In this document: positions 11,106 through 54,539 of the stretch, in pieces
Layout: the number at the start of each line of letters is the position of its first letter
How positions within the stretch are numbered: the stretch's first letter is position 1
NCBI RefSeq assembly: GCF_048403405.1
Contig: NZ_CP183129.1
Length of the DNA: 64,000 bases
Source of the DNA: Escherichia coli
GTDB lineage: Bacteria > Pseudomonadota > Gammaproteobacteria > Enterobacterales > Enterobacteriaceae
Direction: 5' to 3' (one strand)
Program-made: the position numbers and the translations under genes
Notes under the pieces: model-generated
Databases searched by the model: none
Told to the model about the DNA's origin: nothing
The model's input: the letters and a program-made list of their open reading frames with translations, nothing else

Positions 11106-11417
11106 ATGCAGCCAAACGACATCACTTTTTTTCAACGTTTCCAGGATGACATTCTGGCTGGGCGTAAAACCATCACCATCCGCGACGAGTCTGAATCGCA
11201 CTTCAAAACGGGTGATGTGCTTCGTGTCGGGCGTTTTGAAGATGACGGTTATTTTTGCACGATTGAAGTCACCGCAACCTCAACCGTAACGCTGGATACA
11301 CTGACGGAAAAACATGCAGAGCAGGAAAATATGACCCTGACTGAACTGAAAAAGGTCATTGCCGACATCTATCCCGGTCAGACACAGTTTTATGTGATTG
11401 AATTTAAATGTCTTTAA
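11106..11417 (+). CDS. yqfB: ASCH-domain protein YqfB
   Basis: 103 aa, [28 protein letters not shown]... Confidence 0.9.
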
Positions 11418-11577
11418 ATTGAACTCACACCTGTTAGTTGAAATTTTGCATTTAATTTCATGATTTTTCGGAGATTAGTCCCAAATCAGAATTTATTTTA
11501 GCTAACAGGTGTTCACTGGAACTATTCTCAGTTACGCTGGAGAGGTTTACACGTGCGTGTACGTTTCTCCGGAGTAA

Positions 11578-12240
<663 letters not shown>

Positions 12241-12316
12241 TGGGTGTGCCTTTGTAGGCCTGAAAAGACACACCCGCGTCGCATCAGGCGATAAATGCCT
12301 GATGCGACACAGAGAT
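12241..12316. repeat. REP-like palindromic element between the convergent yqfA and ygfZ genes
   Basis: GTCGCATCAGGCG...GCCTGATGCGAC inverted repeat with a GCCTGATGCGAC core in a 76-nt spacer; likely also acts as a bidirectional terminator. Confidence 0.6.
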
Positions 12317-13297
12317 TTACTCTTCGAGCGAATACGGCAGCGGCTCGATACGCAATGTATTCGCATCGTCACGCACGCGGAAGATGCTGTCCGGTTCCAT
12401 ATCGTTATTCATAACGACCTGTACCACGACCTGACCATCTTCCAGTTTGACCGCAGCCAGCACCGTACCGGTACGACGCCAGTTCTCGCCCATTTTCAGC
12501 TCTAAGTCTTCACCGGCTTCCGGCAGTCGGCTGGCGCTACCCGTCAGCAACCAGAGCGCGCGTTTGTTGGCACCACGGAATTTAGCTCGCGCCACCATCT
12601 CTTGTCCGGTATAGCAGCCTTTTTTAAAGCTAATGCCGCCCAGCGCCTGGAGGTTGGTCGCCTGTGGGATAAACTGCCCGCTGTTGGCGGCATCAATCAC
12701 CGGGAAACCCGCTTCAATGTTTAATGCCAGCCACTGTTGGCTATTGTTCAGTTCCGCTTCACCGCGCAGTTTATCGGTCAGCATATTGGCAGTGGCTTCA
12801 TCGGTTACGATCAGGAAACGTTCTGCAGGGTGTTCAAACCATAGCAAAGTGGTCGCGCCTTCTTTAACTACCTGTTTTTCTTTCGAAGGCAGTTCACTAA
12901 AGATATTTGCCAGCGCGGCGCGCGCCTGAAAACCGGCAACACCAAGCAGCACACGCTCGTCGTCTGGCGCGATGATCACTTTAGAGAATACCGCATATTT
13001 TTTCAGTTCAGTCAGCTGCGATTCACGCACGCTGCGCCGTTCAATCCATGCAAAGCCATCGCCGTCGCGGAACAGACGTAAATTGCTCCACATTTTACCT
13101 TTGGCGTCGCAATGGGCGGCGAGCAGGTGCTGATCTTCTGTCATCTGGCTGACATCTGCTGTCACCTGACCCTGCATATATTTTTCGCTGTCCGCGCCAG
13201 TAATGGTGGCAAGCGCCCAGTCATCAAGCGTCATCAGCGTCAGCGGTAAACGGGCAGAAGCCGTAGGCTGACGGGGAGGAAAAGGTGTAAAAGCCAT
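12317..13297 (-). CDS. ygfZ: tRNA-modifying, folate-binding protein YgfZ
   Basis: 326 aa, [30 protein letters not shown]... Confidence 0.92.
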
Positions 13298-21794: not shown

Positions 21795-23243
21795 TTATTC
21801 TCCATGCTCATTTTTCTTCAGCTTGCGCATCAGAAGCCACATACGTACTGTCCTGACTTTTAAATCTTTATCAGAGACGGATTCCTTCACCAGATCAGCA
21901 TGATGCTGATAGCCATTAAAGAAGACGTTCAGCACAACGGCGCTAAGGGTTGCGAGCATAATGCCGCTATGCAGCAACGGTTGCAGTACGGCCGGTAACT
22001 TAGAAAAGAAATCGTGAGAGAGCGTCGGAGTCATGCCAACGCCGAGACTGATCGCCACAATATAGAGGTTGTAACGATTGGTGGTGTAGTTACAGCGCGA
22101 CAGAATTCGAATCCCTGTCGCCAGTACCATGCCGAACATCACCAGCCCAGCACCGCCCAGCACAAATTGCGGAATGGAGGCGACCAGCACCGCCATTTTT
22201 GGCACCATGCCAAACAGGATTAATATAATTCCCGAAGAAATACACACCCAGCGGCTATGAACGCGCGTCACGCTAACCAGGCCAACGTTTTGAGAAAATG
22301 ACGTGTGGGGAAAGCTGTTAAACGTTCCGCCTATCATTGTCCCTACGCCATCGACACGCAGCCCGCGAATAATATCGTGTGAAGAGAGTTTACGACCGAC
22401 TATTTCACCCAGTGCCAGGAACATCCCCATCGACTCGATAAACACGATGATTAACACGGCAGTCATGGTCAGAATGGAAACGGGATCGAAAATCGGCATA
22501 CCAAATGACATCGGCGTGACAATCGCAAACCATGAAGCATCATGTAGCCCGGATAAATTGACTTCATTCATCATCCACGAAAGTAAAAAGCCAAATACAA
22601 TCCCCAGTAATACGGCGACGTTGGACATAAATCCTTTCGCATAGCGAGTAATGAGCAAGATAAAAATTAAGACGGCAAAGGAGATACCTAAATAAACGGG
22701 ATTACCATATTGCGGATTCCCTTTACCTCCGGCGGCCCAGTCAATACCCACCTGAATGATGCTAAGCCCGATAGAAGTAATCACAACACCGGTAACCAGT
22801 GGCGGGAATAAAGGCATCAAGCGACCGATAAGTGGCGCTAATAATGTGGTGATAAAACCCGCGGCGATAGTGGCACCGAATATCCCCAGCAGGCCGATAT
22901 CCGGGTTCATGCCAATGGCTATCATTGGTGTTACAGCGGCGAAGGTCACCGACATAATCACCGGCAGGCGGATCCCCATAAAGCGGCCGATACCGATACA
23001 TTGCAATAATGTGACGATCCCGCAGCAAAAGAGATCCGAGCTAATGAGCATCGCAATAGCTTCTTTTGAGAGGCCCAGTCGGTCACCAATCATAAGAGGA
23101 ACAGCGACTGCACCTGCGTACATGACAAGGACGTGTTGCAGACCGAGTATGATCAGCTTTCCTGGTGATAATATGCGGTCAACCTCATCAGTTGGGCGGT
23201 CTTGCCCTGAAGATGAGGGAAGTTGGGAATCTATGGCGCTCAT
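21795..23243 (-). CDS. uacT: Uric acid:H+ symporter, NCS2 (nucleobase-cation symporter-2) family
   Basis: Track ORF 21795..23372 trimmed to the ATG at codon 44 (MSAIDSQLPSSSGQ...), preceded by an AAGGAG SD; 482 aa polytopic membrane protein. Confidence 0.9.
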   Translation of the reverse strand: MSAIDSQLPSSSGQDRPTDEVDRILSPGKLIILGLQHVLVMYAGAVAVPLMIGDRLGLSKEAIAMLISSDLFCCGIVTLLQCIGIGRFMGIRLPVIMSVTFAAVTPMIAIGMNPDIGLLGIFGATIAAGFITTLLAPLIGRLMPLFPPLVTGVVITSIGLSIIQVGIDWAAGGKGNPQYGNPVYLGISFAVLIFILLITRYAKGFMSNVAVLLGIVFGFLLSWMMNEVNLSGLHDASWFAIVTPMSFGMPIFDPVSILTMTAVLIIVFIESMGMFLALGEIVGRKLSSHDIIRGLRVDGVGTMIGGTFNSFPHTSFSQNVGLVSVTRVHSRWVCISSGIILILFGMVPKMAVLVASIPQFVLGGAGLVMFGMVLATGIRILSRCNYTTNRYNLYIVAISLGVGMTPTLSHDFFSKLPAVLQPLLHSGIMLATLSAVVLNVFFNGYQHHADLVKESVSDKDLKVRTVRMWLLMRKLKKNEHGE

Positions 23244-23678
23244 CAGTGTTTCTCCTTTCGCCCGCCAGAGTAAAAAGCAACCGTTTACGTTAATGAAACT
23301 GTCTAAACACATGCTCGTGGAGTGCCAGTTTTTGCGAGGAAGGGGAGTTAGAGACAGGAATTGCGGAGGCAATCACATAATCGTGGTTAAACCACGAAAA
23401 TGAGAAGAGAACCTGACAATGGAATTATCTGTAATTTTCTCATATTGATATTTCATTAATCATTCTGGCATGTCGCACTCTCGCATTTAATCGTTTTTAT
23501 CTGGATAGCGCTCTTTTGGTCGGCAATGTTGAAGTAATGAAAGCGGCACAGATTGAGGGGCAATAATTTGAACTCAGTCGCAAAATTATAATTAAATCGG
23601 CCATGCTACCTAATATATGCCCATTTATTGCATCGCGAAATTTGAGAAGACATAACTCATTAAATGAAAGGGATGCAA

Positions 23679-25598
23679 ATGAATAAGTTTATCGCTGCTG
23701 AAGCTGCGGAATGTATAGGCTGTCATGCTTGTGAAATTGCCTGTGCGATGGCACATAATCAAGAAAACTGGCCGCTGAGTCACAGTGACTTTCGACCGCG
23801 TATCCACGTTGTAGGGAAAGGCCAGGCTGCGAATCCGGTGGCCTGCCATCACTGCAACAATGCCCCTTGCGTTACGGCTTGTCCGGTTAATGCTCTGACT
23901 TTCCAGCCCGATAGCGTACAACTGGACGAGCAAAAATGTATTGGTTGTAAAAGATGCGCAATCGCTTGCCCCTTTGGCGTCGTTGAGATGGTCGATACGA
24001 TTGCGCAGAAATGCGACCTTTGTAACCAGCGCAGTTCCGGCACGCAAGCCTGTATTGAAGTCTGCCCAACACAGGCGTTACGGCTGATGGACGATAAAGG
24101 GTTGCAGCAGATAAAGGTGGCCCGCCAGCGCAAAACGGCAGCAGGAAAAGCGTCATCAGACGCTCACCCATCTCGCAGTGCAGCGTTGCTCCCCGTTAAC
24201 TCGCGTAAAGGCGCAGATAAAATTTCAGCGAGTGAACGGAAAACCCACTTTGGCGAAATCTATTACGGGCTGGATCCACAACAAGCGACTTATGAGAGTG
24301 ACCGCTGTGTTTATTGCGCCGAAAAAGCTAACTGCAACTGGCATTGCCCGCTGCATAACGCTATTCCGGATTACATCCGTCTGGTGCAGGAAGGAAAGAT
24401 TATTGAAGCGGCAGAACTTTGCCACCAGACCAGTTCCTTACCAGAAATCTGCGGCAGGGTATGTCCACAGGACCGTCTTTGTGAAGGCGCATGTACTTTG
24501 AAAGATCACTCTGGCGCAGTCACTATCGGTAATCTGGAACGCTACATCACCGATACCGCGCTGGCGATGGGCTGGCGTCCCGATGTCAGCAAAGTTGTTC
24601 CCCGTAGCGAAAAAGTGGCGGTGATTGGCGCAGGGCCTGCAGGGTTAGGGTGTGCTGATATTCTGGCGCGCGCAGGAGTTCAGGTTGATGTCTTTGATCG
24701 CCATCCAGAAATTGGCGGTATGCTGACTTTTGGCATACCTCCTTTCAAACTCGATAAAACGGTATTAAGCCAGCGGCGAGAGATATTCACCGCAATGGGA
24801 ATCGACTTTCATCTTAATTGTGAAATTGGCCGCGATATTACCTTTGGCGATTTAACTTCTGAATATGATGCAGTTTTCATCGGCGTGGGGACTTACGGGA
24901 TGATGCGAGCAGATCTGCCGCATGAAGATGCGCCCGGTGTCATTCAGGCTCTACCGTTCCTGACTGCCCATACCCGCCAGCTCATGGGGTTGCCGGAGTC
25001 TGAAGAGTATCCGCTGACGGATGTGGAAGGTAAGCGAGTCGTGGTATTGGGCGGTGGCGATACGACCATGGATTGTTTGCGGACTTCCATCCGCCTCAAT
25101 GCCGCCAGCGTGACCTGCGCGTATCGTCGTGATGAAGTCAGTATGCCGGGCTCGCGCAAAGAGGTGGTCAATGCGCGCGAGGAAGGTGTCGAGTTTCAGT
25201 TCAATGTTCAGCCGCAATATATCGCTTGTGACGAAGATGGGCGTTTAACTGCGGTGGGCCTGATTCGTACAGCCATGGGTGAGCCGGGGCCGGATGGTCG
25301 CCGTCGTCCTCGTCCGGTAGCGGGTTCAGAGTTTGAATTGCCCGCCGATGTTCTCATTATGGCCTTTGGTTTCCAGGCGCATGCCATGCCGTGGTTGCAG
25401 GGCAGCGGAATTAAACTCGATAAATGGGGCCTGATTCAAACCGGTGACGTCGGGTATTTACCTACCCAGACGCATCTGAAAAAAGTCTTTGCTGGTGGTG
25501 ATGCTGTTCATGGCGCGGATCTGGTTGTCACTGCAATGGCCGCAGGAAGGCAGGCGGCGCGCGATATGTTAACTCTGTTTGATACGAAGGCATCGTGA
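23679..25598 (+). CDS. ygfT: Fe-S / FAD-NAD(P)-binding oxidoreductase (N-terminal 2x[4Fe-4S] ferredoxin domain plus glutamate-synthase-small-subunit-like flavoprotein)
   Basis: Track ORF trimmed to [22 protein letters not shown]...; CxxCxxCxxxCP motifs and a GAGPAGL dinucleotide fold; 639 aa. Confidence 0.9.
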
Positions 25599-26086
25599 TG
25601 AAATCGTTAATTATCGTTAATCCGGCTGACTGTATTGGCTGCCGTACTTGTGAAGTAGCCTGTGTGGTCGCTCACCCTTCAGAACAGGAGTTGAATGCCG
25701 ATGTCTTTTTACCCCGGCTGAAGGTACAGCGACTGGACAGCATCAGTGCGCCGGTGATGTGCCATCAGTGTGAAAACGCCCCTTGTGTTAGCGCTTGCCC
25801 CGTGGGGGCGCTGACGATGGGCGAGCAGGTGGTGCAGGCCAATTCTGCCCGTTGTATTGGCTGTCAGAGTTGCGTCAGTGCGTGCCCGTTTGGGATGATA
25901 ACCATTCAGTCGTTGCCGGGGGATACCCGGCAACAAATTGTGAAATGCGATCTCTGTGAACAGCGGGAAGAGGGGCCAGCCTGCGTTGAATCTTGCCCGA
26001 CACAGGCGCTGCAGTTGCTTACTGAAAGAGAACTCAGGCGAGTCCGCCAGCAGCGTATTGTTGCCAGCGGTAAGAATCCTCTGTGA
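25598..26086 (+). CDS. ygfS: 4Fe-4S ferredoxin-like electron-transfer subunit
   Basis: 162 aa with several CxxCxxCxxxCP motifs; the ATG overlaps the ygfT stop (TGATG). Confidence 0.88.
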
Positions 26087-30423: not shown

Positions 30424-33294
30424 TTATATTTTTTCCAGCGCGGTGAGTATTTTCTCCGGTGTGAAATGCCATTCGCGTAACCAGATGCCGCATGCATCGT
30501 GAATTGCGGTAGCAATCGCCGGAGCTGCGCCATTTACACCGATTTCCGAGATCGATTTCGCCCCGAACGGGCCGACTTTATCGTCGCTCGGCACCAGCAC
30601 AGCGCGGAAATCACGCGGAATATCGCCTATTTTCGGTGCGCCGTAACTGCGTAAATCACGCGTTAACGGGTGACCTTCGGCGTCATAAATGATTTCTTCG
30701 CTCATACTGTGGCCGATTGCACGAAGGGTGGCACCGTAGATTTGTCCCAACGCTAACTCTGGATTGACCGGTGTACCGCAATCCAGCAAGGCGTAGAATT
30801 TATCCAGGCGGATTTCCCCCGTACGCGTGTTGACGGCAACTTCAGCAAAGTTTGCGCCATACGGGAAGGCGAAATCAGGCGTGATATAACTGCCAGTTCC
30901 CACCAGTGAACCAAAGCCGGTGCCGGTTTCGCCTTTATGGGCAATATCCCCGAAACTAACTTCGCCTTTCTTGCCGCGTACGACGCCCGGCGTTGCTAGT
31001 TGGACATCTGCCACTGGCTCACCCAACATTTGCGCACCGTGGAACAGAATTTTCTCCCGCAGATTTTCTGCTGCCAAGCGCGCCGCGTTACCCGAGAAGC
31101 AAGTACCGGACGAGGCATATGCGCCTTTATCAAACAACGCATGATCGGTATCACCGGAGATAACATGCACGTCCTGCGGTGGGCAGTGCAGCACTTCTGC
31201 TGCCAGTTTCGTCACCACCGTATCCAGACCAGTACCAATATCCGCACCGCCAGAATGAACGATAAAGGTACCGTCTGATTCCAGTTTGATCATGCAGTTA
31301 GCCTGATCGATATCTGGGATCCCTGATTTCTGCATGATAATGGCGACGCCACGACCGATGTGCCAGTCACCGTTTTGTGGTTTTGGTGAAGACCATTGGA
31401 TCATCTCGCGACCCTGACGCAGGATCTCTTCCAGTGCGCAGCTGGCGGCGGAAGGAACGGAGGTCGGCGCTTTACCTTCACCGATTGCACCGAGAATTTT
31501 CAGCTCTTGCCCTTCGTGTACCCGGTTACGTTCGATAATTTCCAGTTGGTCGATCTGTAACTGTTCAGCCAGTTCCGCTAATGCCATGGTGATAGCGAAG
31601 TTACCTTTCGGTGCGCCATAACCCTGATAAGCACCATTTGGGCAAATGTTGCTGTAGTAGGTGGTGACCTGGAAATCGACGTTATCGCACGGATATAACG
31701 GCAGCGACAGCGCCGGTCCGTTACACGGTACGGTGAGTGAGTGGTTGCCGTAAGGGCCAGTGTTGGCGCGGAAATCCATCTTCACTGCCGTCAGGCGACC
31801 ATCTTTTTTCGCTCCCAGTTTGACGGTGACTTTCGCGACGTGACGAGAGGTGTTAGCAATAAACTCTTCTTCACGGGTGTAGCGGAACAGTACCGGACGC
31901 CCGGTCACGCAGGTTGCCCAGGCGCACACTTCTTCCAGCAGGATGTCCTGTTTAGACCCAAAACCGCCGCCAACTCGCTCTTTAATGACATGAACTTTAT
32001 GTTGTTTCATGCCCACGAGGCGCGCGACCTGGCGGCGTAAGTGCCATGGTACTTGGGTGGAGGCGTGGATAACCAGACGATCGCCGTCCATACGGGTAAA
32101 GCAGATATGAGTTTCAGTCGGGCACTGCTGCGCCTGCGTTGAGTTATAGGTTCGCTCAATGATCACATCGGCATCGGCAAAGCCTTTGTCCATATCGCCA
32201 ATATGACCATGAATACTGGCGGCGATATTTTTACGGGGGCGAGAACCGATCGGGAAGTTGATGATCATATGCTCGCCGCGCTGGGCTGCATGGCTGTTAT
32301 CGTCTTCCAGAGTATCTGGCGCACCAGCAACATACACCACCGGTTCATCGTGCACGACAGGCGCATCTTCCGCCATTGCTTCGTCGATCGACATTACAGG
32401 TTTAAGCACTTCATATTCAACGTCGATGAGCTTCAGTGCTTCGAGCGCAATGTCTTCACTTTCTGCGACGACCGCAGCAACGCGATCGCCGACGTGACGC
32501 ATTTTCTTGCCGAACATACGGCGGTCAAGCGGTGACGGTTCCGGTGCGCTCTGACCGCCCGGGGTATAGTAGATATCCGGGCAATTCAGGTGAGTAATAA
32601 CGTGAACAACGCCCGGTAAGGCTTCAGCTTTGCTGACATCCAGATGAGTAATCAGTGCGTGAGCGTGTGGGCTACGTAACATTTTAATGACGCAGGCATC
32701 AGCCGTTACGCGGTCTTCAACATAGCAGGGTTTCGCCTGCACCATTTTCGCGGCATCAGTTTTAGGATAATGCTTACCAATGACTTCAAGGTCATCGCGG
32801 AAAGTCGGAGCGATATCAATGGTGGCCTGCGGATTATTTTTACGTGCAACCGCCAGTTCAATGACCTGATAGTATTGTTGCCAGCCTGCATCGCGGCTGA
32901 ACAAACCAGAAAGCGCGTCGTCGATCTCTTCGCGGGTCGGTGCGGCAATGCGATCGAGAAGATCGGTGATAATCAGAGCCGCAGCTGGATCGTTATAACC
33001 AGACTGCACCACGCCAACATCAACCATTGCCTGTTGAACCAGACTTAACTCGTTCCATTTGCCCAGAGACTCTGTGGTACGAATATCTGCCTTCTCTAAC
33101 TGTGCGGCGATAAGCAAGGACGCGTTAACGATATTACCGTTACAGATAATTGCGTCAGAACCGGCAAACCCGAATCCATCATCGCTGTTGCGTACAGAGT
33201 GCATTCCCATGTTAAACAACAGCTTTTGCACGTTTTCGCCTGGATTAACGGTTAGCTCCTGAGGCGCGCCATTTAAAGTAAAGTGGATGATCAT
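30424..33294 (-). CDS. xdhD: Molybdopterin-containing hydroxylase, fused 2Fe-2S plus molybdenum-binding subunit (xanthine dehydrogenase family; putative selenium-dependent)
   Basis: 956 aa; aldehyde-oxidase/xanthine-dehydrogenase-type large subunit with an N-terminal iron-sulfur domain. Confidence 0.88.
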   Translation of the reverse strand: MIIHFTLNGAPQELTVNPGENVQKLLFNMGMHSVRNSDDGFGFAGSDAIICNGNIVNASLLIAAQLEKADIRTTESLGKWNELSLVQQAMVDVGVVQSGYNDPAAALIITDLLDRIAAPTREEIDDALSGLFSRDAGWQQYYQVIELAVARKNNPQATIDIAPTFRDDLEVIGKHYPKTDAAKMVQAKPCYVEDRVTADACVIKMLRSPHAHALITHLDVSKAEALPGVVHVITHLNCPDIYYTPGGQSAPEPSPLDRRMFGKKMRHVGDRVAAVVAESEDIALEALKLIDVEYEVLKPVMSIDEAMAEDAPVVHDEPVVYVAGAPDTLEDDNSHAAQRGEHMIINFPIGSRPRKNIAASIHGHIGDMDKGFADADVIIERTYNSTQAQQCPTETHICFTRMDGDRLVIHASTQVPWHLRRQVARLVGMKQHKVHVIKERVGGGFGSKQDILLEEVCAWATCVTGRPVLFRYTREEEFIANTSRHVAKVTVKLGAKKDGRLTAVKMDFRANTGPYGNHSLTVPCNGPALSLPLYPCDNVDFQVTTYYSNICPNGAYQGYGAPKGNFAITMALAELAEQLQIDQLEIIERNRVHEGQELKILGAIGEGKAPTSVPSAASCALEEILRQGREMIQWSSPKPQNGDWHIGRGVAIIMQKSGIPDIDQANCMIKLESDGTFIVHSGGADIGTGLDTVVTKLAAEVLHCPPQDVHVISGDTDHALFDKGAYASSGTCFSGNAARLAAENLREKILFHGAQMLGEPVADVQLATPGVVRGKKGEVSFGDIAHKGETGTGFGSLVGTGSYITPDFAFPYGANFAEVAVNTRTGEIRLDKFYALLDCGTPVNPELALGQIYGATLRAIGHSMSEEIIYDAEGHPLTRDLRSYGAPKIGDIPRDFRAVLVPSDDKVGPFGAKSISEIGVNGAAPAIATAIHDACGIWLREWHFTPEKILTALEKI

Positions 33295-38550: not shown

Positions 38551-38871
38551 AACCCTCTCCTTAGCTTATACAGATATCATTGAGTGACCGGTGTTGAGAA
38601 ATCCGGTGGTTTAGGGGGATAGAGCAACAATCGCACCACTCTTGCCAGGTTTGGCGGGAAATATAAAAAAATGTGAGGCGGCTCGAAACTTAGGGGCTTT
38701 TTGTGAAAGAACTCACAGGTGCCAAATGAGAATTAAAATCACTCCTGAAAATTATTATTGCCAGCCCATTTATCACTTTTTCTCTTTTCTCAAAATCAGT
38801 GATTCCTTATCATTATGATAAAGAGAACTGGAAGGGTTAAATATTTGAACGCAATCGTTTAACTACGTTTT

Positions 38872-39552: not shown

Positions 39553-40323
39553 GTGAAAAGTATAGTTGACCCATCGGCATTATTCATTGATTTAGGTGCG
39601 CAGAAACGTCCCACTGTGATTTCTGTTGTTGGTGCTGGGGGGAAAACCAGCTTGCTTTTTTGGCTGGCAGAACTGCTCCAGGCTAGCGGCAGGCGTGTGT
39701 TAATCACGACGACGACACATATGTTTATGCCAACGTCTCACTGGCCCGTGGTTTTCTGTCGTGATCCCGCCATGCTTCCTCATGCGTCTTTTATATCCCC
39801 CATTTCATTTTGTTTTCACAGCTGGAAAGCGAACCAGGGAAAAGTGCAGGGATTTACGCCAGAAGCGATTGATGCACTGGTACAACGATCAGAGTGTGAC
39901 GTAATTCTCATTGAGGCAGATGGCTCGCGTGGAATGCCGTTAAAAGCGCCTGATGAGCACGAACCTTGCATACCTAAAAGCAGTTGCTGCGTGATTGCTG
40001 TGATGGGAGGACATATTTTGGGTGCAAAAGTGAGCACAGAAAATGTCCATCGCTGGTCGCAGTTTGCTGATATTACCGGGTTAACACCTGATGCACCCTT
40101 GCAACTGAGCGATCTCGTTGCGCTGGTTCGCCACCCTCAGGGCGCGTTTAAAAACGTACCGCAAGGTTGTCGGCGAGTCTGGTTCATTAACCGTTTTTCT
40201 CAATGTGAGAATGCGATTGCGCAAAGCGAGCTCCTTCAACCGCTGCAACAACACAACGTAGAGGCAATCTGGCTGGGCGATATACAAGAACATCCTGCAA
40301 TCGCGCGCAGATTTGTGAATTAG
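39553..40323 (+). CDS. yqeC: Selenium-dependent molybdenum hydroxylase system protein YqeC (P-loop-like)
   Basis: 256 aa with a VVGAGGKTSLLFWLA Walker-A-like motif. Confidence 0.85.
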   Translation: MKSIVDPSALFIDLGAQKRPTVISVVGAGGKTSLLFWLAELLQASGRRVLITTTTHMFMPTSHWPVVFCRDPAMLPHASFISPISFCFHSWKANQGKVQGFTPEAIDALVQRSECDVILIEADGSRGMPLKAPDEHEPCIPKSSCCVIAVMGGHILGAKVSTENVHRWSQFADITGLTPDAPLQLSDLVALVRHPQGAFKNVPQGCRRVWFINRFSQCENAIAQSELLQPLQQHNVEAIWLGDIQEHPAIARRFVN

Positions 40324-44454: not shown

Positions 44455-45666
44455 TTATTCGGTTGCCAGCCAGCTTAACGGGATTGCCGCGTACATCGCG
44501 GCACAGGTCACCAGGTGAGATTTCCAGGTTTTTTCGTTAGGTGCATGCGCTTCAGGTTCTTTACCTGGGCCAAAGCCGATCACCGGAATGCCGTGACGGC
44601 CCATGATAGATACGCCGTTAGTTGAGAAGGTCCACTTATCAACAACCGGCGCTTTGCCAAACAGCCCTTCGTAGGCATTCACCAGTGCTTTAACGGTGAA
44701 GTGATCTTCTTCCACTTTCCAGGTCGGGAAGTAGCATTCGGTTGGGTATACCAGGCCAGTCCAGGACGGACGGTCGTAGTTGTACATAGAAACAACCGCG
44801 TTAGCTTTCTGTACCGCAGGCAGGGCGCGGATTTCATCCAGCGCGCCTTCCCAGGTTTCGCCCCAGGTCAGACGGCGGTCAATAGAGACGGCGCAGCTAT
44901 CTGCTACTGCGCAACGGCTTGGGGATGTGAAGAAGATTTCAGAAACGGTGAGGGTGCCTTTGCCGAGGAATTCGTCATAACCCAGACGTTGGGAGAGTTC
45001 TTGTAATTCGCCAAGAATCGGACCCATTTTGAAAATGGCGTTGTCACCGCGTTCTGGTGCAGAACCGTGGCAGCTAACACCCTGAACATCAATACGAATT
45101 TCCATACGACCGCGCTGACCACGGTATACCTGGCAGTCGGTTGGTTCGGTACTGACCACAAATTCCGGGCGAATGCCGGATTGTTCAATAATGTACTGCC
45201 AGCACAGGCCGTCGCAGTCTTCTTCCTGCACCGTACCGGTAACCAGCAGGGTATATTCATCTTCCAGACCGAGGTCTTTAATGATTTTACCGGCATAAAC
45301 CATAGATGCCATGCCGCCTTCCTGGTCGGAAGTACCGCGACCACCGATCAGCTCATCAGTTTCCATGCCTTCGTACGGATCGAAGTCCCAGTTTTTGATG
45401 TTGCCAATGCCGACGGTATCAATATGAGCGTCCATTGCCACCAGACGCGGGCCGTGGCCGATATAACCGAGAACGTTGCCCATCGGGTCGATTTCAACTT
45501 TATCGAAGCCGACTTTTTCCATCTCTTCTTTAATACGATGTACTACGCGTTTCTCGTCGCAGCTTTCACTGGGAATAGCAACCATGTCGCGCAGGAAGCG
45601 AGTCATATCCGCCTGGTAATCTTTTGCTTTTTCAAGAATCAGTTTGAATGGAATATTCTTAGCCAT
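44455..45666 (-). CDS. ygeY: Peptidase M20 family amidohydrolase (ArgE/DapE/acylase-like)
   Basis: 403 aa, [35 protein letters not shown]... Confidence 0.88.
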
Positions 45667-45723: not shown

Positions 45724-46920
45724 TTAAGGTGCTACAGCGTGTTTGCCTTCCCAGACAACTTCGCGGTAGTGCTTCACGTCGGTGTCGCCTTCAGTGCTGA
45801 TAACCAGCACCACGGCATCTTTGTTCAGCGCCAGTTTTTCCATCAGGCTTTGACGTTGTGGGTGATAATGAACCGCTGCGAGAACGCCCAAACCGACAGC
45901 GCCGGATTCGCCGGAGATGATGCGCGGGTCGTTGCCGTACGGATTACCCAGCACGCGCATACCTAATGCGGCAACGCTGTCCTGGCAGGAGATGAATTGG
46001 GTGGCGCAGTTACGTAGGATTTCCCAGCCCAGCGGGTTAGGTTCGCCACAGGCCAGGCCTGCCATGATGGTGGCCATATCACCGCCAACGTTGACGATGT
46101 CGCCTTTGACGCCAGAGCGATAAATACAGTCAGCTTTGTCAGGTTCAACAATAATGCTGTGCAGATTTTGCGGGCTGTAGACGTCGACCAGATAACCCAG
46201 CACACCACCAGCCATTGCACCGACACCGGCTTGCAGCAGAACGTGCGTCGGGGTTACGCCCATTTCACGCATTTGCTCGACGGCTTCATCTGCCAGTGTT
46301 GCGTAGCCTTGCATGATCCAGGTTGGGATTTTGGTGTAACCTTCCCAGGCGGTATCTTGCACCACTTCCCAGCCGTGCTGCTGCGCGTGTTGCATGGTCA
46401 GGCGAACGGTATCGTCATAGTTCATATCCGTGACGATGCACTCGGCACCGAGGTTCAGAATGGCGTCAACGCGTTCCTGAGCAGAACCTTTCGGCATGTA
46501 AATCACCGCATTCTGTCCGAGTTGCTGTGCTGCCCACGCCACACCGCGCCCGTGGTTGCCGTCGGTGGTGGTCGCGAAGGTCATTTTTTCGCCGATGGCA
46601 TTTTTCAGATGCTCAAATGACAGCGTTTCGATATCAAGATGATATTTTTCACACAATAATTGAGCGATGGCGTACGCACCGCCGAGCATTTTGAAGGCGT
46701 TCAGACCGAATCGTTTTGATTCGTCTTTGACGAGAATTTTCTTCACACCAAAAAGGTTTGCGAGATCGTCCAGCGCACAAAGCGGTGTTGGGCGATAACC
46801 AGCAATTTTCTGATGGAACTGGCGCGCCAGTTTGGCCTGGCTTTGCGAAAAGAGCGGTGATGTTTCGCCGTTGAAAAATTTGTTATCGGCGATATCAATC
46901 TTCAATGAGAAAACGGACAT
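45724..46920 (-). CDS. dpaL: Diaminopropionate ammonia-lyase (PLP-dependent, fold type II)
   Basis: 398 aa; also known as ygeX. Confidence 0.88.
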   Translation of the reverse strand: MSVFSLKIDIADNKFFNGETSPLFSQSQAKLARQFHQKIAGYRPTPLCALDDLANLFGVKKILVKDESKRFGLNAFKMLGGAYAIAQLLCEKYHLDIETLSFEHLKNAIGEKMTFATTTDGNHGRGVAWAAQQLGQNAVIYMPKGSAQERVDAILNLGAECIVTDMNYDDTVRLTMQHAQQHGWEVVQDTAWEGYTKIPTWIMQGYATLADEAVEQMREMGVTPTHVLLQAGVGAMAGGVLGYLVDVYSPQNLHSIIVEPDKADCIYRSGVKGDIVNVGGDMATIMAGLACGEPNPLGWEILRNCATQFISCQDSVAALGMRVLGNPYGNDPRIISGESGAVGLGVLAAVHYHPQRQSLMEKLALNKDAVVLVISTEGDTDVKHYREVVWEGKHAVAP

Positions 46921-48257: not shown

Positions 48258-48276
48258 TAACAATAAGTGTGCCAGA
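48258..48276 (-). promoter_or_regulatory. Candidate sigma54 (-24/-12) promoter reading toward ygeW
   Basis: Minus strand reads CTGGCACACTTATTGTT: the -24 TGGCAC element and the correct spacing to a -12 TTGT (consensus TTGC), about 90 nt upstream of the ygeW start and next to the divergent sigma54 activator gene ygeV. One mismatch in the -12 GC. Confidence 0.4.
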
Positions 48277-48643
48277 ATTATCCACGGGGCTGCAAAAGAC
48301 TAATTTGACGGATAATGTGTGGGGTTGATCACAAATTGATGCCAGCTTCCGGTTGTTTGTAAAATACGAAAACGATTGGCTTTTCTTATCGCGTTATTTA
48401 TTTACTGCTAAGTATCAGAAATAAGATAAAGGGACAGGCTATCTCTCTTCAGTTTGATAAACTCACCGCCGTAATTCTCATATTGATATAGAAATGTGAT
48501 ATCTCTTCCATAATTTCATTAGAAAGTGATAAAAATCTTATGTTTTTATCAAAGCCAATTTCGCCTGAGTTAATATCATCATGATCTGTGAACCATCAAC
48601 GTCTTCAATGATCGACTTTTAAGTAAGTCTGGAAGGTAAAGCT

Positions 48644-50422
48644 ATGGAGCTTGCTACTACGCAGTCAGTATTGATGCAAATTCAACCGACAATTCAGCGT
48701 TTTGCCAGAATGCTTGCCAGCGTTTTGCAGCTTGAGGTTGAGATCGTTGATGAAAACTTGTGTCGCGTCGCCGGAACGGGCGCGTATGGGAAGTTTCTTG
48801 GTCGCCAGTTGAGCGGCAACTCACGCCTGCTCCGCCACGTCCTGGAAACGAAAACTGAAAAAGTTGTGACACAGTCTCGCTTCGATCCCCTTTGTGAAGG
48901 TTGCGATAGTAAAGAAAATTGCCGCGAAAAAGCATTTCTGGGTACGCCTGTCATTTTACAGGATCGTTGTGTTGGGGTGATAAGTTTGATTGCCGTTACC
49001 CACGAGCAACAAGAGCATATCAGTGATAATTTACGCGAATTTTCTGATTATGTTCGCCATATATCCACCATTTTTGTTTCGAAACTTCTGGAGGATCAGG
49101 GGCCAGGAGATAACATCAGTAAAATATTCGCGACCATGATCGATAATATGGATCAGGGCGTATTAGTTGTTGATGATGAAAGTCGGGTTCAGTTTGTTAA
49201 TCAGACTGCCTTAAAAACACTTGGTGTTGTACAAAATAATATTATTGGGAAACCTATCCGTTTCAGACCATTAACATTTGAGAGTAATTTTACCCATGGA
49301 CATATGCAGCATATTGTTTCGTGGGACGATAAAAGTGAATTAATCATTGGTCAATTGCATAACATTCAGGGCCGACAATTATTTTTAATGGCGTTTCACC
49401 AATCGCATACCAGTTTTTCTGTAGCAAATGCACCTGATGAACCGCATATTGAACAATTGGTTGGCGAGTGCCGTGTTATGCGGCAATTAAAACGACTCAT
49501 TAGCCGTATTGCACCCAGCCCATCCAGCGTTATGGTGGTTGGTGAAAGCGGCACGGGTAAAGAAGTTGTCGCCCGTGCAATCCATAAGTTGAGCGGAAGA
49601 CGGAATAAACCCTTTATTGCTATCAACTGTGCCGCGATTCCGGAGCAGCTTCTGGAGAGCGAACTGTTCGGTTATGTTAAAGGCGCATTTACTGGCGCTT
49701 CTGCCAACGGTAAAACAGGGTTGATTCAGGCGGCGAATACGGGCACGCTGTTTCTCGATGAAATAGGTGATATGCCATTAATGTTGCAGGCTAAATTACT
49801 GCGCGCTATTGAGGCACGTGAAATTCTGCCGATTGGTGCCAGTAGCCCAATACAAGTCGACATTCGCATCATTTCTGCAACTAACCAGAATTTGGCCCAG
49901 TTCATTGCCGAAGGTAAATTCCGCGAAGATCTCTTCTACCGACTTAATGTTATCCCGATAACTCTGCCACCGCTGCGTGAACGTCAGGAAGATATTGAAC
50001 TACTGGTGCATTACTTTTTACATCTGCATACCCGTCGTCTGGGATCGGTTTATCCGGGCATTGCTCCCGATGTCGTCGAAATATTGCGTAAGCATCGTTG
50101 GCCCGGAAACCTGCGCGAGTTAAGCAATTTGATGGAATATCTGGTTAACGTGGTTCCTTCAGGTGAAGTTATCGACAGCACGCTATTGCCGCCAAATCTG
50201 CTGAATAATGGCACAACGGAGCAAAGTGATGTAACAGAGGTCAACGAGGCGCACCTGGCACTCGATGATGCGGGCGGCACGGCGCTGGAGGAGATGGAAA
50301 AGCAAATGATCCGCGAGGCGCTTTCACGTCATAACAGCAAGAAGCAAGTTGCTGATGAACTGGGCATCGGCATTGCTACGCTCTACCGCAAGATTAAAAA
50401 ATATGAGTTGTTAAACACATAA
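48644..50422 (+). CDS. ygeV: Sigma54-dependent transcriptional activator (NtrC/bEBP family) with N-terminal sensory domains
   Basis: 592 aa; AAA+ Walker A (VVGESGTGKEVVARAIH), the GAFTGA sigma54-contact motif and a C-terminal HTH. Confidence 0.9.
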   Translation: MELATTQSVLMQIQPTIQRFARMLASVLQLEVEIVDENLCRVAGTGAYGKFLGRQLSGNSRLLRHVLETKTEKVVTQSRFDPLCEGCDSKENCREKAFLGTPVILQDRCVGVISLIAVTHEQQEHISDNLREFSDYVRHISTIFVSKLLEDQGPGDNISKIFATMIDNMDQGVLVVDDESRVQFVNQTALKTLGVVQNNIIGKPIRFRPLTFESNFTHGHMQHIVSWDDKSELIIGQLHNIQGRQLFLMAFHQSHTSFSVANAPDEPHIEQLVGECRVMRQLKRLISRIAPSPSSVMVVGESGTGKEVVARAIHKLSGRRNKPFIAINCAAIPEQLLESELFGYVKGAFTGASANGKTGLIQAANTGTLFLDEIGDMPLMLQAKLLRAIEAREILPIGASSPIQVDIRIISATNQNLAQFIAEGKFREDLFYRLNVIPITLPPLRERQEDIELLVHYFLHLHTRRLGSVYPGIAPDVVEILRKHRWPGNLRELSNLMEYLVNVVPSGEVIDSTLLPPNLLNNGTTEQSDVTEVNEAHLALDDAGGTALEEMEKQMIREALSRHNSKKQVADELGIGIATLYRKIKKYELLNT

Positions 50423-54085: not shown

Positions 54086-54539
54086 GCAAGATTCACCCGT
54101 AGCGGTTGCTTCCCGCGCTTCCATAGAAATCCCCTCGATTTGAACATTTGGTTCTTATGGCAAAGATTTAGTCTAAGCAGGCAAGATTTACGCCAGAAAC
54201 GACGATAAGCGTTAGGGGAGGAAGGAAGTGTGATGACGTTAAAAAAACACAGATATGATACGAAACAGGACTCTGAATAGGGGCAGTGATACGTATCAAT
54301 ATGAGTGGCGATAAAATCAATGTGATAAATCAGGATTATTACGCATCAGGATGGGAAATAGGGTAAAAAAGTCAGGAAATTCGATACCTCTGCAGCGAAT
54401 ATTTTGCTGATGATACTTCCCTTTGCCAAATGAAATTAACCTCTTTCTCTATTACCGCGTTTTTCCAGAAGCAAGAGATTGGGTATCCAGAGGCTGGCTG
54501 CTATGATATGGCGTCTTGTTTTTTAAGCGAGGAAAGATT

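Follow-up and report, generated by a model that had tools for sequence, protein, structure and literature searches.

A probable two-way σ54 control region between the divergent uacT and ygfT-ygfS transcription units of Escherichia coli

Introduction

Two intergenic regions of Escherichia coli, hycA/hypA and zraP/zraS, which are controlled by FhlA and ZraR, respectively, accommodate back-to-back σ54 promoters in a single gap, with the activator sites lying between the promoters. At prpBCDE/prpR of E. coli and Salmonella, a catabolic promoter combines σ54 and PrpR with cAMP-CRP and is subject to catabolite repression, and at some other σ54 promoters CRP acts negatively. The architectural role at most σ54 promoters is that of IHF. 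Both the hycA/hypA and zraP/zraS pairs are among the σ54 sites mapped in published ChIP-seq work.

A σ54 activator of purine genes has been predicted in Clostridiales, where comparative genomics defined DioR, a protein whose function was then unknown (Nie et al. 2019, PMC6615313). Its targets comprise dpaL-pbuX-pyrC, ygeW-ygfK-ssnA-ygeY, yqeC-ygfJ-yqeB-xdhC, xdhABC, and pbuX, and its predicted enhancer sites, listed in a supplementary table of that study, include ATTTATCATAATGATAAGG, TATTATCATTTTGATAATA, and AATTCTCGTATTGATAAAA (PMC6615313).

In E. coli, the pathway by which gut bacteria remove uric acid is represented by the uacT/ygfT/xdh/ygf cluster, which is studied for gout and hyperuricaemia and is being engineered into probiotics. 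Published accounts call the regulation of the urate genes poorly understood. In K-12, σ54 ChIP-seq places four intergenic sites in this cluster, upstream of xdhA, ygeW, ygfK, and ygfT. The PRECISE-1K compendium assigns ygfT and uacT to a 13-gene YgeV iModulon, together with xdhABC, ygeWXY, hyuA, ygfK, ssnA, ygfM, and xdhD, an assignment that expresses correlation only. Uric acid strongly induces ygfT, and ygfT expression is reduced in a ygeV mutant according to Iwadate and Kato (2019), as cited elsewhere. According to a 2025 paper, urate degradation by wild-type E. coli is subject to glucose repression; the same paper mentions a native CRP site between ygeV and ygeW.

Here, we analyze the gap between uacT and ygfT within a 64,000-nucleotide stretch of E. 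coli DNA (hereafter, the window). Judging from its sequence and its conservation, this gap is probably a two-way σ54 control region in which the two promoters share a YgeV enhancer and are accompanied by two CRP-like sites.

Results

The gap and its immediate surroundings are laid out as follows.

21795–23243, minus strand: uacT, urate/H+ symporter, 482 amino acids, ATG at 23243
23244–23678, no strand assigned: uacT-ygfT intergenic control region, 435 bp, 39.8% GC
23679–26086, plus strand: ygfT (Fe-S flavoprotein, 639 amino acids) and ygfS (4Fe-4S protein), an overlapping operon

As the uacT ATG is at 23243 on the minus strand and the ygfT ATG is at 23679 on the plus strand, the gap spans exactly 23244–23678. 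The start of ygfS coincides with the ygfT stop codon, and ygfT is annotated as a formate-dependent uric acid utilization protein. A first-pass annotation had described about 435 bp of AT-rich non-coding DNA that serves as a divergent control region; the dimensions are confirmed, the GC content of the gap being 39.8% compared to 49.7% for the window, and its function as a divergent control region is supported by the results below. A 701-base segment around the region is matched in 5,330 of 5,426 complete E. coli genomes with the annotation of uacT and ygfT, and the sequence of the gap is almost identical to that of K-12 MG1655.

Scans of the 435-bp gap returned no σ70 consensus promoter and no terminator. 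No conserved open reading frame was found in it, the only frames being unconserved ones of 20–35 amino acids, and a search for structured RNA gave no Rfam match near the threshold. A multiple alignment of the gap included E. coli, E. albertii, Citrobacter sp. R56, C. freundii, Kluyvera, and Serratia oryzae. The mean column identity of this cross-genus alignment is 57%, with many indels, and conservation is limited to islands that correspond to two promoters, two CRP-like sites, and an enhancer composed of a strong and a weak site. No conserved non-coding island of the alignment lies outside these five elements, ribosome-binding sites and start codons excepted. The four types of element are conserved and are common to the regulon.

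To score σ54 promoters, we used a matrix built from 42 published intergenic sites, which finds the ygeW, xdhA, and ygfK promoters of the window again (scores 17.0, 14.3, and 13.4, respectively). The highest-scoring site of the gap (8.6) lies upstream of ygfT.

23616–23632, plus strand: σ54 promoter of ygfT-ygfS, TATGCCCATTTATTGCA, the published ChIP-seq site OS32

In K-12, OS32 has the sequence TATGCCCGTTTATTGCA, is located 36 nucleotides from the gene, and has a fold-above-threshold value of 3. It is among the weakest peaks, and its motif score is the lowest in the ChIP-seq table. The ygfT peak, which neighbors the uacT site described below, stands barely above the ChIP-seq threshold. The site of the present strain differs from its K-12 counterpart by one spacer base; its predicted transcription start at 23643 gives a 5′ UTR of 36 nucleotides, the same as the published distance. 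The −12 element (TTGCA) is canonical and the −24 element (ATGCC) carries TG in place of GG. Across genera, TTGCAT is invariant and the −24 element is consistently degenerate (TG or CG). The published K-12 ChIP-seq data establish that σ54 occupies this site in vivo.

On the opposite strand, a second σ54-type element faces uacT.

23312–23328, minus strand: predicted σ54-type promoter of uacT, CTGGCACTCCACGAGCA, with GG at 23326–23325 and GC at 23314–23313

Transcription from this element is predicted to start at about 23301, leaving a 5′ UTR of about 58 nucleotides. Compared with the TGGCAC-N5-TTGCW consensus, the −24 element is perfect, and GG and GC are 10 nucleotides apart, whereas the −12 flank is GA rather than TT, with an A directly before GC where a T is usual. 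The matrix score of 6.9 is the second best in the gap, and about 0.6 such matches are expected by chance in a region of equal size. As this score is not significant alone, the evidence for a uacT promoter rests on conservation. E. coli, E. albertii, the two Citrobacter, Kluyvera, Serratia oryzae, and Pluralibacter all have CTGGCAY and GCATG unchanged, separated by a 7-nucleotide spacer of variable sequence. In Pluralibacter gergoviae, uacT is flanked by a porin gene and yqeB instead of ygfT, and keeps CTGGCACCGGATAAGCA 75 nucleotides upstream. Similarly, Morganella uacT, which is not adjacent to ygfT, is preceded by a canonical σ54 site, TTGGTCTGTATTTTGCT, and by the enhancer palindrome considered below. 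These observations lead us to infer that the uacT promoter is functional.

The K-12 ChIP-seq tables and supplements, which cover one condition (M9), contain no σ54 peak at uacT (ygfU), and the sequence of the uacT site is identical in K-12. The missing peak, together with the non-consensus −12 flank and the conserved CRP-like site upstream of the element, would agree with an arrangement in which σ54 serves ygfT-ygfS only, uacT is transcribed from a weak CRP-dependent σ70 promoter, and CTGGCA...GCATG is the site of some other factor. We consider this arrangement unlikely. The aligned genera display no conserved −10 hexamer downstream of the CRP-like site, and the conserved bases are exactly GG and GC, 10 nucleotides apart, with a spacer that varies freely. 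Furthermore, the uacT genes of Pluralibacter and Morganella retain a σ54-type site and the palindrome without an adjacent ygfT, uacT co-varies with the σ54 gene set, and at a distant homologue locus a permease gene is found behind a strong σ54 promoter with the same enhancer.

A still less probable explanation, and one that we regard as hardly tenable, is that of the first-pass annotation, which had both units transcribed from σ70 promoters under an unknown purine-responsive regulator, without σ54. The off-consensus −24 element of ygfT and −12 element of uacT speak for it, as does the lack of a reported ChIP-seq peak at uacT. It is contradicted by the OS32 peak, which places σ54 at ygfT in vivo, by the reported dependence of ygfT on the σ54 activator YgeV (in the mutant work known through its citation elsewhere), by the empty σ70 scan, and by the conserved −24/−12 element of uacT, the conserved pattern being the GG/GC of σ54 and not a −35/−10 pair. 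The statement that the gap has no σ54 consensus was wrong: it overlooked both the ChIP-seq-mapped ygfT site and the uacT site, the latter being on the minus strand, which had apparently not been scanned. It was correct that a TGGCAT (23466–23471, σ54 matrix score 3.9) lacks a correctly spaced −12 element. The proposed co-regulation of both units with the genes for purines and urate also stands, as both belong to the YgeV iModulon and ygfT is induced by uric acid. Considering (i) the ChIP-seq site, (ii) the YgeV iModulon, (iii) the ygeV-mutant report as cited, and (iv) induction by urate, the divergent region and its co-regulation are thus retained from the earlier interpretation, and σ70 promoters and the absence of a σ54 site are not. 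Expression of ygfT and uacT follows that of the YgeV gene set.

A candidate activator site is located between the two promoters and recurs upstream of the other σ54 promoters of the cluster.

23438–23450, no strand assigned: primary enhancer (UAS), TCTCATATTGATA, candidate YgeV site, an imperfect palindrome between the promoters
23458–23470, no strand assigned: weak secondary enhancer-like site, AATCATTCTGGCA, 20 bp from the primary site, containing TGGCAT
48476–48488, no strand assigned: identical enhancer, TCTCATATTGATA, in the ygeV-ygeW gap, −234 to the ygeW start
48259–48275, minus strand: σ54 promoter of ygeW
38808–38820, no strand assigned: enhancer TATCATAATGATA, 202 bp upstream of the ygfK σ54 start
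38623–38639, minus strand: σ54 promoter of ygfK
54294–54327, no strand assigned: two enhancer sites, ACTCATATTGATA and TATCACATTGATT, 21 bp apart, at −131 and −152 relative to xdhA
54180–54196, minus strand: σ54 promoter of xdhA
48644–50422, plus strand: ygeV, σ54 enhancer-binding protein (PAS domain, AAA+ σ54 interaction domain, Fis-type helix-turn-helix), the presumed activator

The consensus of these sites is an imperfect palindrome, T[CA]TCA-N3-TGA[TG]A. The center of the primary site precedes the predicted starts of uacT and ygfT by 143 and 199 bp, respectively. The ygeW, xdhA, and ygfK sites differ from 23438–23450 at no more than three positions and lie 130–235 bp upstream of their σ54 promoters; an inverted repeat is thus found at −131 to −234, inside the interval of about 100–250 bp upstream of the σ54 promoters of the regulon where an activator site is expected. 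The 12-mer CTCATATTGATA (23439–23450) is present exactly upstream of ygeW and xdhA and at 10 of 12 positions upstream of ygfK, which gives a summed match of 34 out of 36 compared to a maximum of 30 for shuffled sequences. With at most one mismatch allowed, the 13-mer occurs four times in the window, and calculation predicts about 0.08 occurrences. Of 5,307 E. coli genomes, 3,665 carry the 60-mer that surrounds the enhancer with at least 99% identity, a level that the neighboring 60-mer attains in 64 of 5,301. Copies of the motif are also found within ygeX, ygeY, and yqeC, where a role as an upstream enhancer is not obvious.

The secondary site AATCATTCTGGCA (score 5.0) is the best neighboring site, and its TCATTC block is conserved. 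Of the four E. coli enhancer positions, three have a weaker site 20–21 bp from the primary one, the site at 23458–23470 being among them. More broadly, tandem sites 17–21 bp apart occur at xdhA and ygfK, in Morganella and Citrobacter, at the clostridial DioR targets, and at metagenome loci with YgeV homologues.

In the cross-genus alignment, the enhancer is a conserved island that reads TCTCACAATGAGA in Kluyvera, TCTCATAATGAGA in S. oryzae, and TCTCAGTTTGATA in C. freundii. In Kluyvera, a copy of TCTCATATTGATA precedes the ygfK promoter by 181 bp, and the Pluralibacter equivalent is at −182. All four matrix matches scoring at least 12 in the 21-kb Pluralibacter locus fall in gaps upstream of σ54 promoters, with enhancer matches at −237 from ygeW, at −176 from uacT, and in the ygfK/yqeB gap. 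Pluralibacter YgeV is 73% identical to that of E. coli, and its recognition segment, ELGIGIATLYRKIKKYEL, is identical. A matrix derived from the enterobacterial sites outside E. coli finds four matches scoring at least 16 in the window, compared to a Markov mean of 0.10. Measured from the enhancer center, the −12 GC of the uacT promoter is 127–138 bp away in the five genera that have uacT and ygfT as divergent neighbors and 163 bp away in Pluralibacter, whereas the ygfT promoter is separated from the enhancer by 119 to 220 bp, depending on the genus. These spacings suggest that the looping constraint is tighter on the uacT side.

The same motif has been described in clostridia. The DioR sites conform to T[AC]TCA-N3-TGA[TG]A, show the same alternation of TATCA and TCTCA, and are often arranged in tandem 17–20 bp apart. 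Over 18 nucleotides, a C. botulinum site and the ygfK site of E. coli (CTTTATCATAATGATAAGG) are identical. A clostridial matrix, built solely from 22 published DioR sites, gives its three highest scores among the 64,000 window positions to 48476, 23438, and 38808, and 23438, with a score of 18.2, is in the top two. Word-indexed homologue searches with YgeV retrieved E. coli variants only, and a full-library search produced many full-length homologues of 35–41% identity. Two homologues that we looked up (38–40% identity) are both encoded within purine-degradation clusters. At metagenome loci L088 and L090, a YgeV-family gene is accompanied by tandem motif pairs 18–20 bp apart; L090 has strong σ54 promoters, and one of its motif pairs precedes a gene for a xanthine/uracil permease. 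Pluralibacter, L088, and L090 thus contain both the activator gene and the motif.

The ygeV gene is about 25 kb from the gap, in the same purine/urate cluster, and is the sole annotated σ54 activator gene in the 41.5-kb stretch that contains the whole cluster. Taken together, these comparisons point to YgeV as the protein that would bind the palindrome TCTCATATTGATA. A conceivable alternative retains the σ54 promoters and has the palindrome bound by a protein other than YgeV, for example another regulator of the purine cluster, with the YgeV sites located elsewhere. The literature that we found assigns neither this motif nor any other binding site to E. coli YgeV, though further papers may exist, and the copies of the motif inside genes of the cluster would be compatible with a different binding protein. 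We give this alternative little credence. The motif precedes every mapped intergenic σ54 promoter of the cluster by 130–235 bp, it travels with YgeV-family genes from enterobacteria to clostridia and the metagenome loci, it has been independently assigned to DioR, the clostridial member of the family, and the cluster stretch offers no annotated σ54 activator gene besides ygeV.

With YgeV as the presumed activator, the remaining conserved islands lie between the enhancer and the two promoters and resemble CRP sites; similar cores are found upstream of the other σ54-dependent genes of the cluster.

23362–23377, no strand assigned: CRP-like site 1, toward uacT, TGTGATTGCCTCCGCA, center 68.5 bp upstream of the predicted uacT start
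23567–23582, no strand assigned: CRP-like site 2, TTTGAACTCAGTCGCA, center 68.5 bp upstream of the predicted ygfT start
−67.5 and −97.5: ygfK CRP-like cores, TGTGAAAGAACTCACA being the only perfect core in the window
−77.5: ygeW CRP-like core
−67.5: xdhA CRP-like core

Both sites of the gap match 8 of the 10 positions of the TGTGA-N6-TCACA core, a level that a crude count finds 34 times in the window. Their offsets are conserved. At site 1, the TGTGA half-site is invariant and is found at −67.5 or −68.5 in six genera. In Citrobacter sp. R56, C. freundii, and S. oryzae, site 2 reads TTTGA-N6-TC(A/G)CA and is likewise found at −67.5 or −68.5; Kluyvera has a weaker version (TTAGA...) that fits the core at 7 of 10 positions. 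For both uacT and ygfT, all genera examined have their best core of the −45 to −125 interval at −67.5 or −68.5. Again, the ygfK and ygeW cores have the same offsets in Kluyvera and Pluralibacter. The offsets of −77.5 and −97.5 are about one and three helical turns beyond −68.

Because the core offsets are conserved, the pathway is repressed by glucose, and a CRP site has been reported in the ygeV-ygeW gap, we propose that a cAMP-CRP bend may be placed between enhancer and promoter. CRP would bind both sites and act positively.

Three other candidate elements were considered and set aside. A perfect palindrome, TCGTGGTTAAACCACGA (23381–23397), occurs once in the window, is matched within three mismatches by 24 of 100 shuffled sequences, and is unconserved in another E. 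coli lineage and in other genera. The TGGCAT at 23466–23471 has no −12 element that would make it a σ54 promoter, and instead overlaps the weak secondary enhancer-like site. A putative IHF site between the enhancer and the ygfT promoter fits the consensus poorly in other genera, and its reading as the CRP-like site TTTGA-N6-TCGCA at −68.5 is better.

Discussion

Combining these findings, the most likely order of elements from uacT to ygfT is the predicted uacT promoter, a CRP-like site, a YgeV-type enhancer with its strong and weak sites, a second CRP-like site, and the ygfT promoter. We propose the following model for their operation. YgeV would bind TCTCATATTGATA at 23438–23450 and the weak second site 20 bp away, and would become activated, presumably by urate or a related purine. 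Active YgeV would then contact σ54 RNA polymerase at the two promoters by DNA looping, at the uacT promoter 143 bp to the left and at the ygfT promoter 199 bp to the right. Each loop would be closed by a DNA bend at the CRP-like site centered 68.5 bp upstream of the respective start, and both units would in this way depend on cAMP-CRP, i.e. would be repressed by glucose.

We extend this model only tentatively to a design shared by the entire regulon, a proposal that falls somewhat short of being probable. In such a design, a DioR-type YgeV enhancer and σ54 would be combined with a CRP bend at −68, −77.5, or −97.5, CRP would take the role of IHF, and a single enhancer would fire both uacT and ygfT, in opposite directions. 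The pair of activator and operator would have been kept intact from Firmicutes to Proteobacteria, with CRP added in the enterobacteria.

Earlier work had established the σ54 site at ygfT and the co-expression of the genes. Sequence comparison leads here to three new predictions, namely a promoter for uacT, a motif of the DioR type as part of the E. coli regulon, and fixed offsets of the CRP-like sites. The map of elements offers targets for mutagenesis and parts for urate-responsive reporters, and suggests a route by which glucose repression could be relieved without replacing whole promoters. Furthermore, it ties the uncharacterised regulator YgeV to a candidate site, a DNA motif that is directly testable.

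The YgeV regulon resembles that of DioR in being controlled by a σ54 activator and in its targets, which include dpaL/ygeX, ygeW, ygfK, ssnA, ygeY, yqeB, yqeC, xdh, and a purine permease. The predicted DioR enhancers are located 170–390 bp upstream of genes, are often in tandem, and have the motif found in E. coli. We liken YgeV to DioR on the grounds of motif, targets, and homologue clusters, rather than by direct comparison with the named DioR proteins. The E. coli system differs from the clostridial one in that the permease gene uacT and ygfT-ygfS would share one enhancer between divergent promoters, and in that the −24 element of ygfT and the −12 flank of uacT are non-canonical. A further difference is the presence of CRP-like sites at fixed offsets in E. 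coli. To our knowledge, clostridia lack CRP, and thus no such fixed-offset sites would be possible there.

Within E. coli, the arrangement proposed for uacT and ygfT parallels the back-to-back σ54 promoter pairs of hycA/hypA and zraP/zraS, each contained in one gap. The activator and its motif are different at uacT-ygfT, and one of the two promoters, that of uacT, is undetected by ChIP-seq. In its combination of σ54, a dedicated activator, and cAMP-CRP, the proposed control of the urate genes is comparable to that of prpBCDE, with the distinction that a positive role of CRP at the urate promoters is deduced from conserved sites and from glucose repression at the level of the pathway. The gap between uacT and ygfT is thus most likely an ordinary kind of switch, the parts of which were previously unmapped.

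Conserved elements outside the uacT-ygfT gap

Two elements have counterparts in other genera:

38702-38717, CRP core TGTGAAAGAACTCACA, upstream of ygfK
40198-40210, enhancer-type palindrome TCTCAATGTGAGA, at the 3′ end of yqeC

Among all CRP cores of the 64-kb window, only the first is perfect; it is centered at −97.5 bp relative to the predicted start of the ygfK σ54 promoter, and the CRP core of ygfK is kept at this same offset in both Kluyvera and Pluralibacter. The second is a copy of the T[CA]TCA-N3-TGA[TG]A-type motif and is kept at the same place in Kluyvera (positions 1192-1204 of locus L084). A published intragenic σ54 promoter is located at 39954-39970 within yqeC; counted from the start of this promoter, the palindrome lies about 223 bp downstream, and yqeB follows about 167 nucleotides after the palindrome. 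The yqeC palindrome may be an enhancer that is sited downstream of its own promoter.

Intragenic matches and a palindrome in the gap

Further matches were found within coding sequences, and a palindrome in the uacT-ygfT gap:

45417-45429, enhancer-type match TATCAATATGAGC, inside ygeY
46632-46644, enhancer-type match TATCAAGATGATA, inside ygeX
30844-30860, minus strand, σ54-type match ATGGCGCAAACTTTGCT, within the 3′ end of xdhD
23381-23397, perfect 17-bp palindrome TCGTGGTTAAACCACGA, in the uacT-ygfT gap

No obvious σ54 site is present near the ygeX and ygeY matches. The xdhD match, with a score of 15.5, ranks second among all matches to the σ54 matrix in the window, and xanQ is about 585 nucleotides downstream of it; a lookup by gene names and b-numbers in the K-12 ChIP-seq paper's main-text tables returned no entry for this match. 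The 17-bp palindrome is found in the studied strain and in K-12, is absent from another E. coli lineage and from the other genera compared, and is probably a chance feature.

Gene content

In the urate cluster of Pluralibacter gergoviae, an OprD-like porin gene is directly upstream of uacT (positions 11220-12500 of locus L086), and ygeV is present without adjoining xdhABC.

At the far end of the window (about 56000-64000), the annotation of a matching strain places type III secretion genes, comprising eivF, sctC, and frameshifted sctN, escV-like and gatekeeper genes; these seem to be what remains of the ETT2 island of E. coli.
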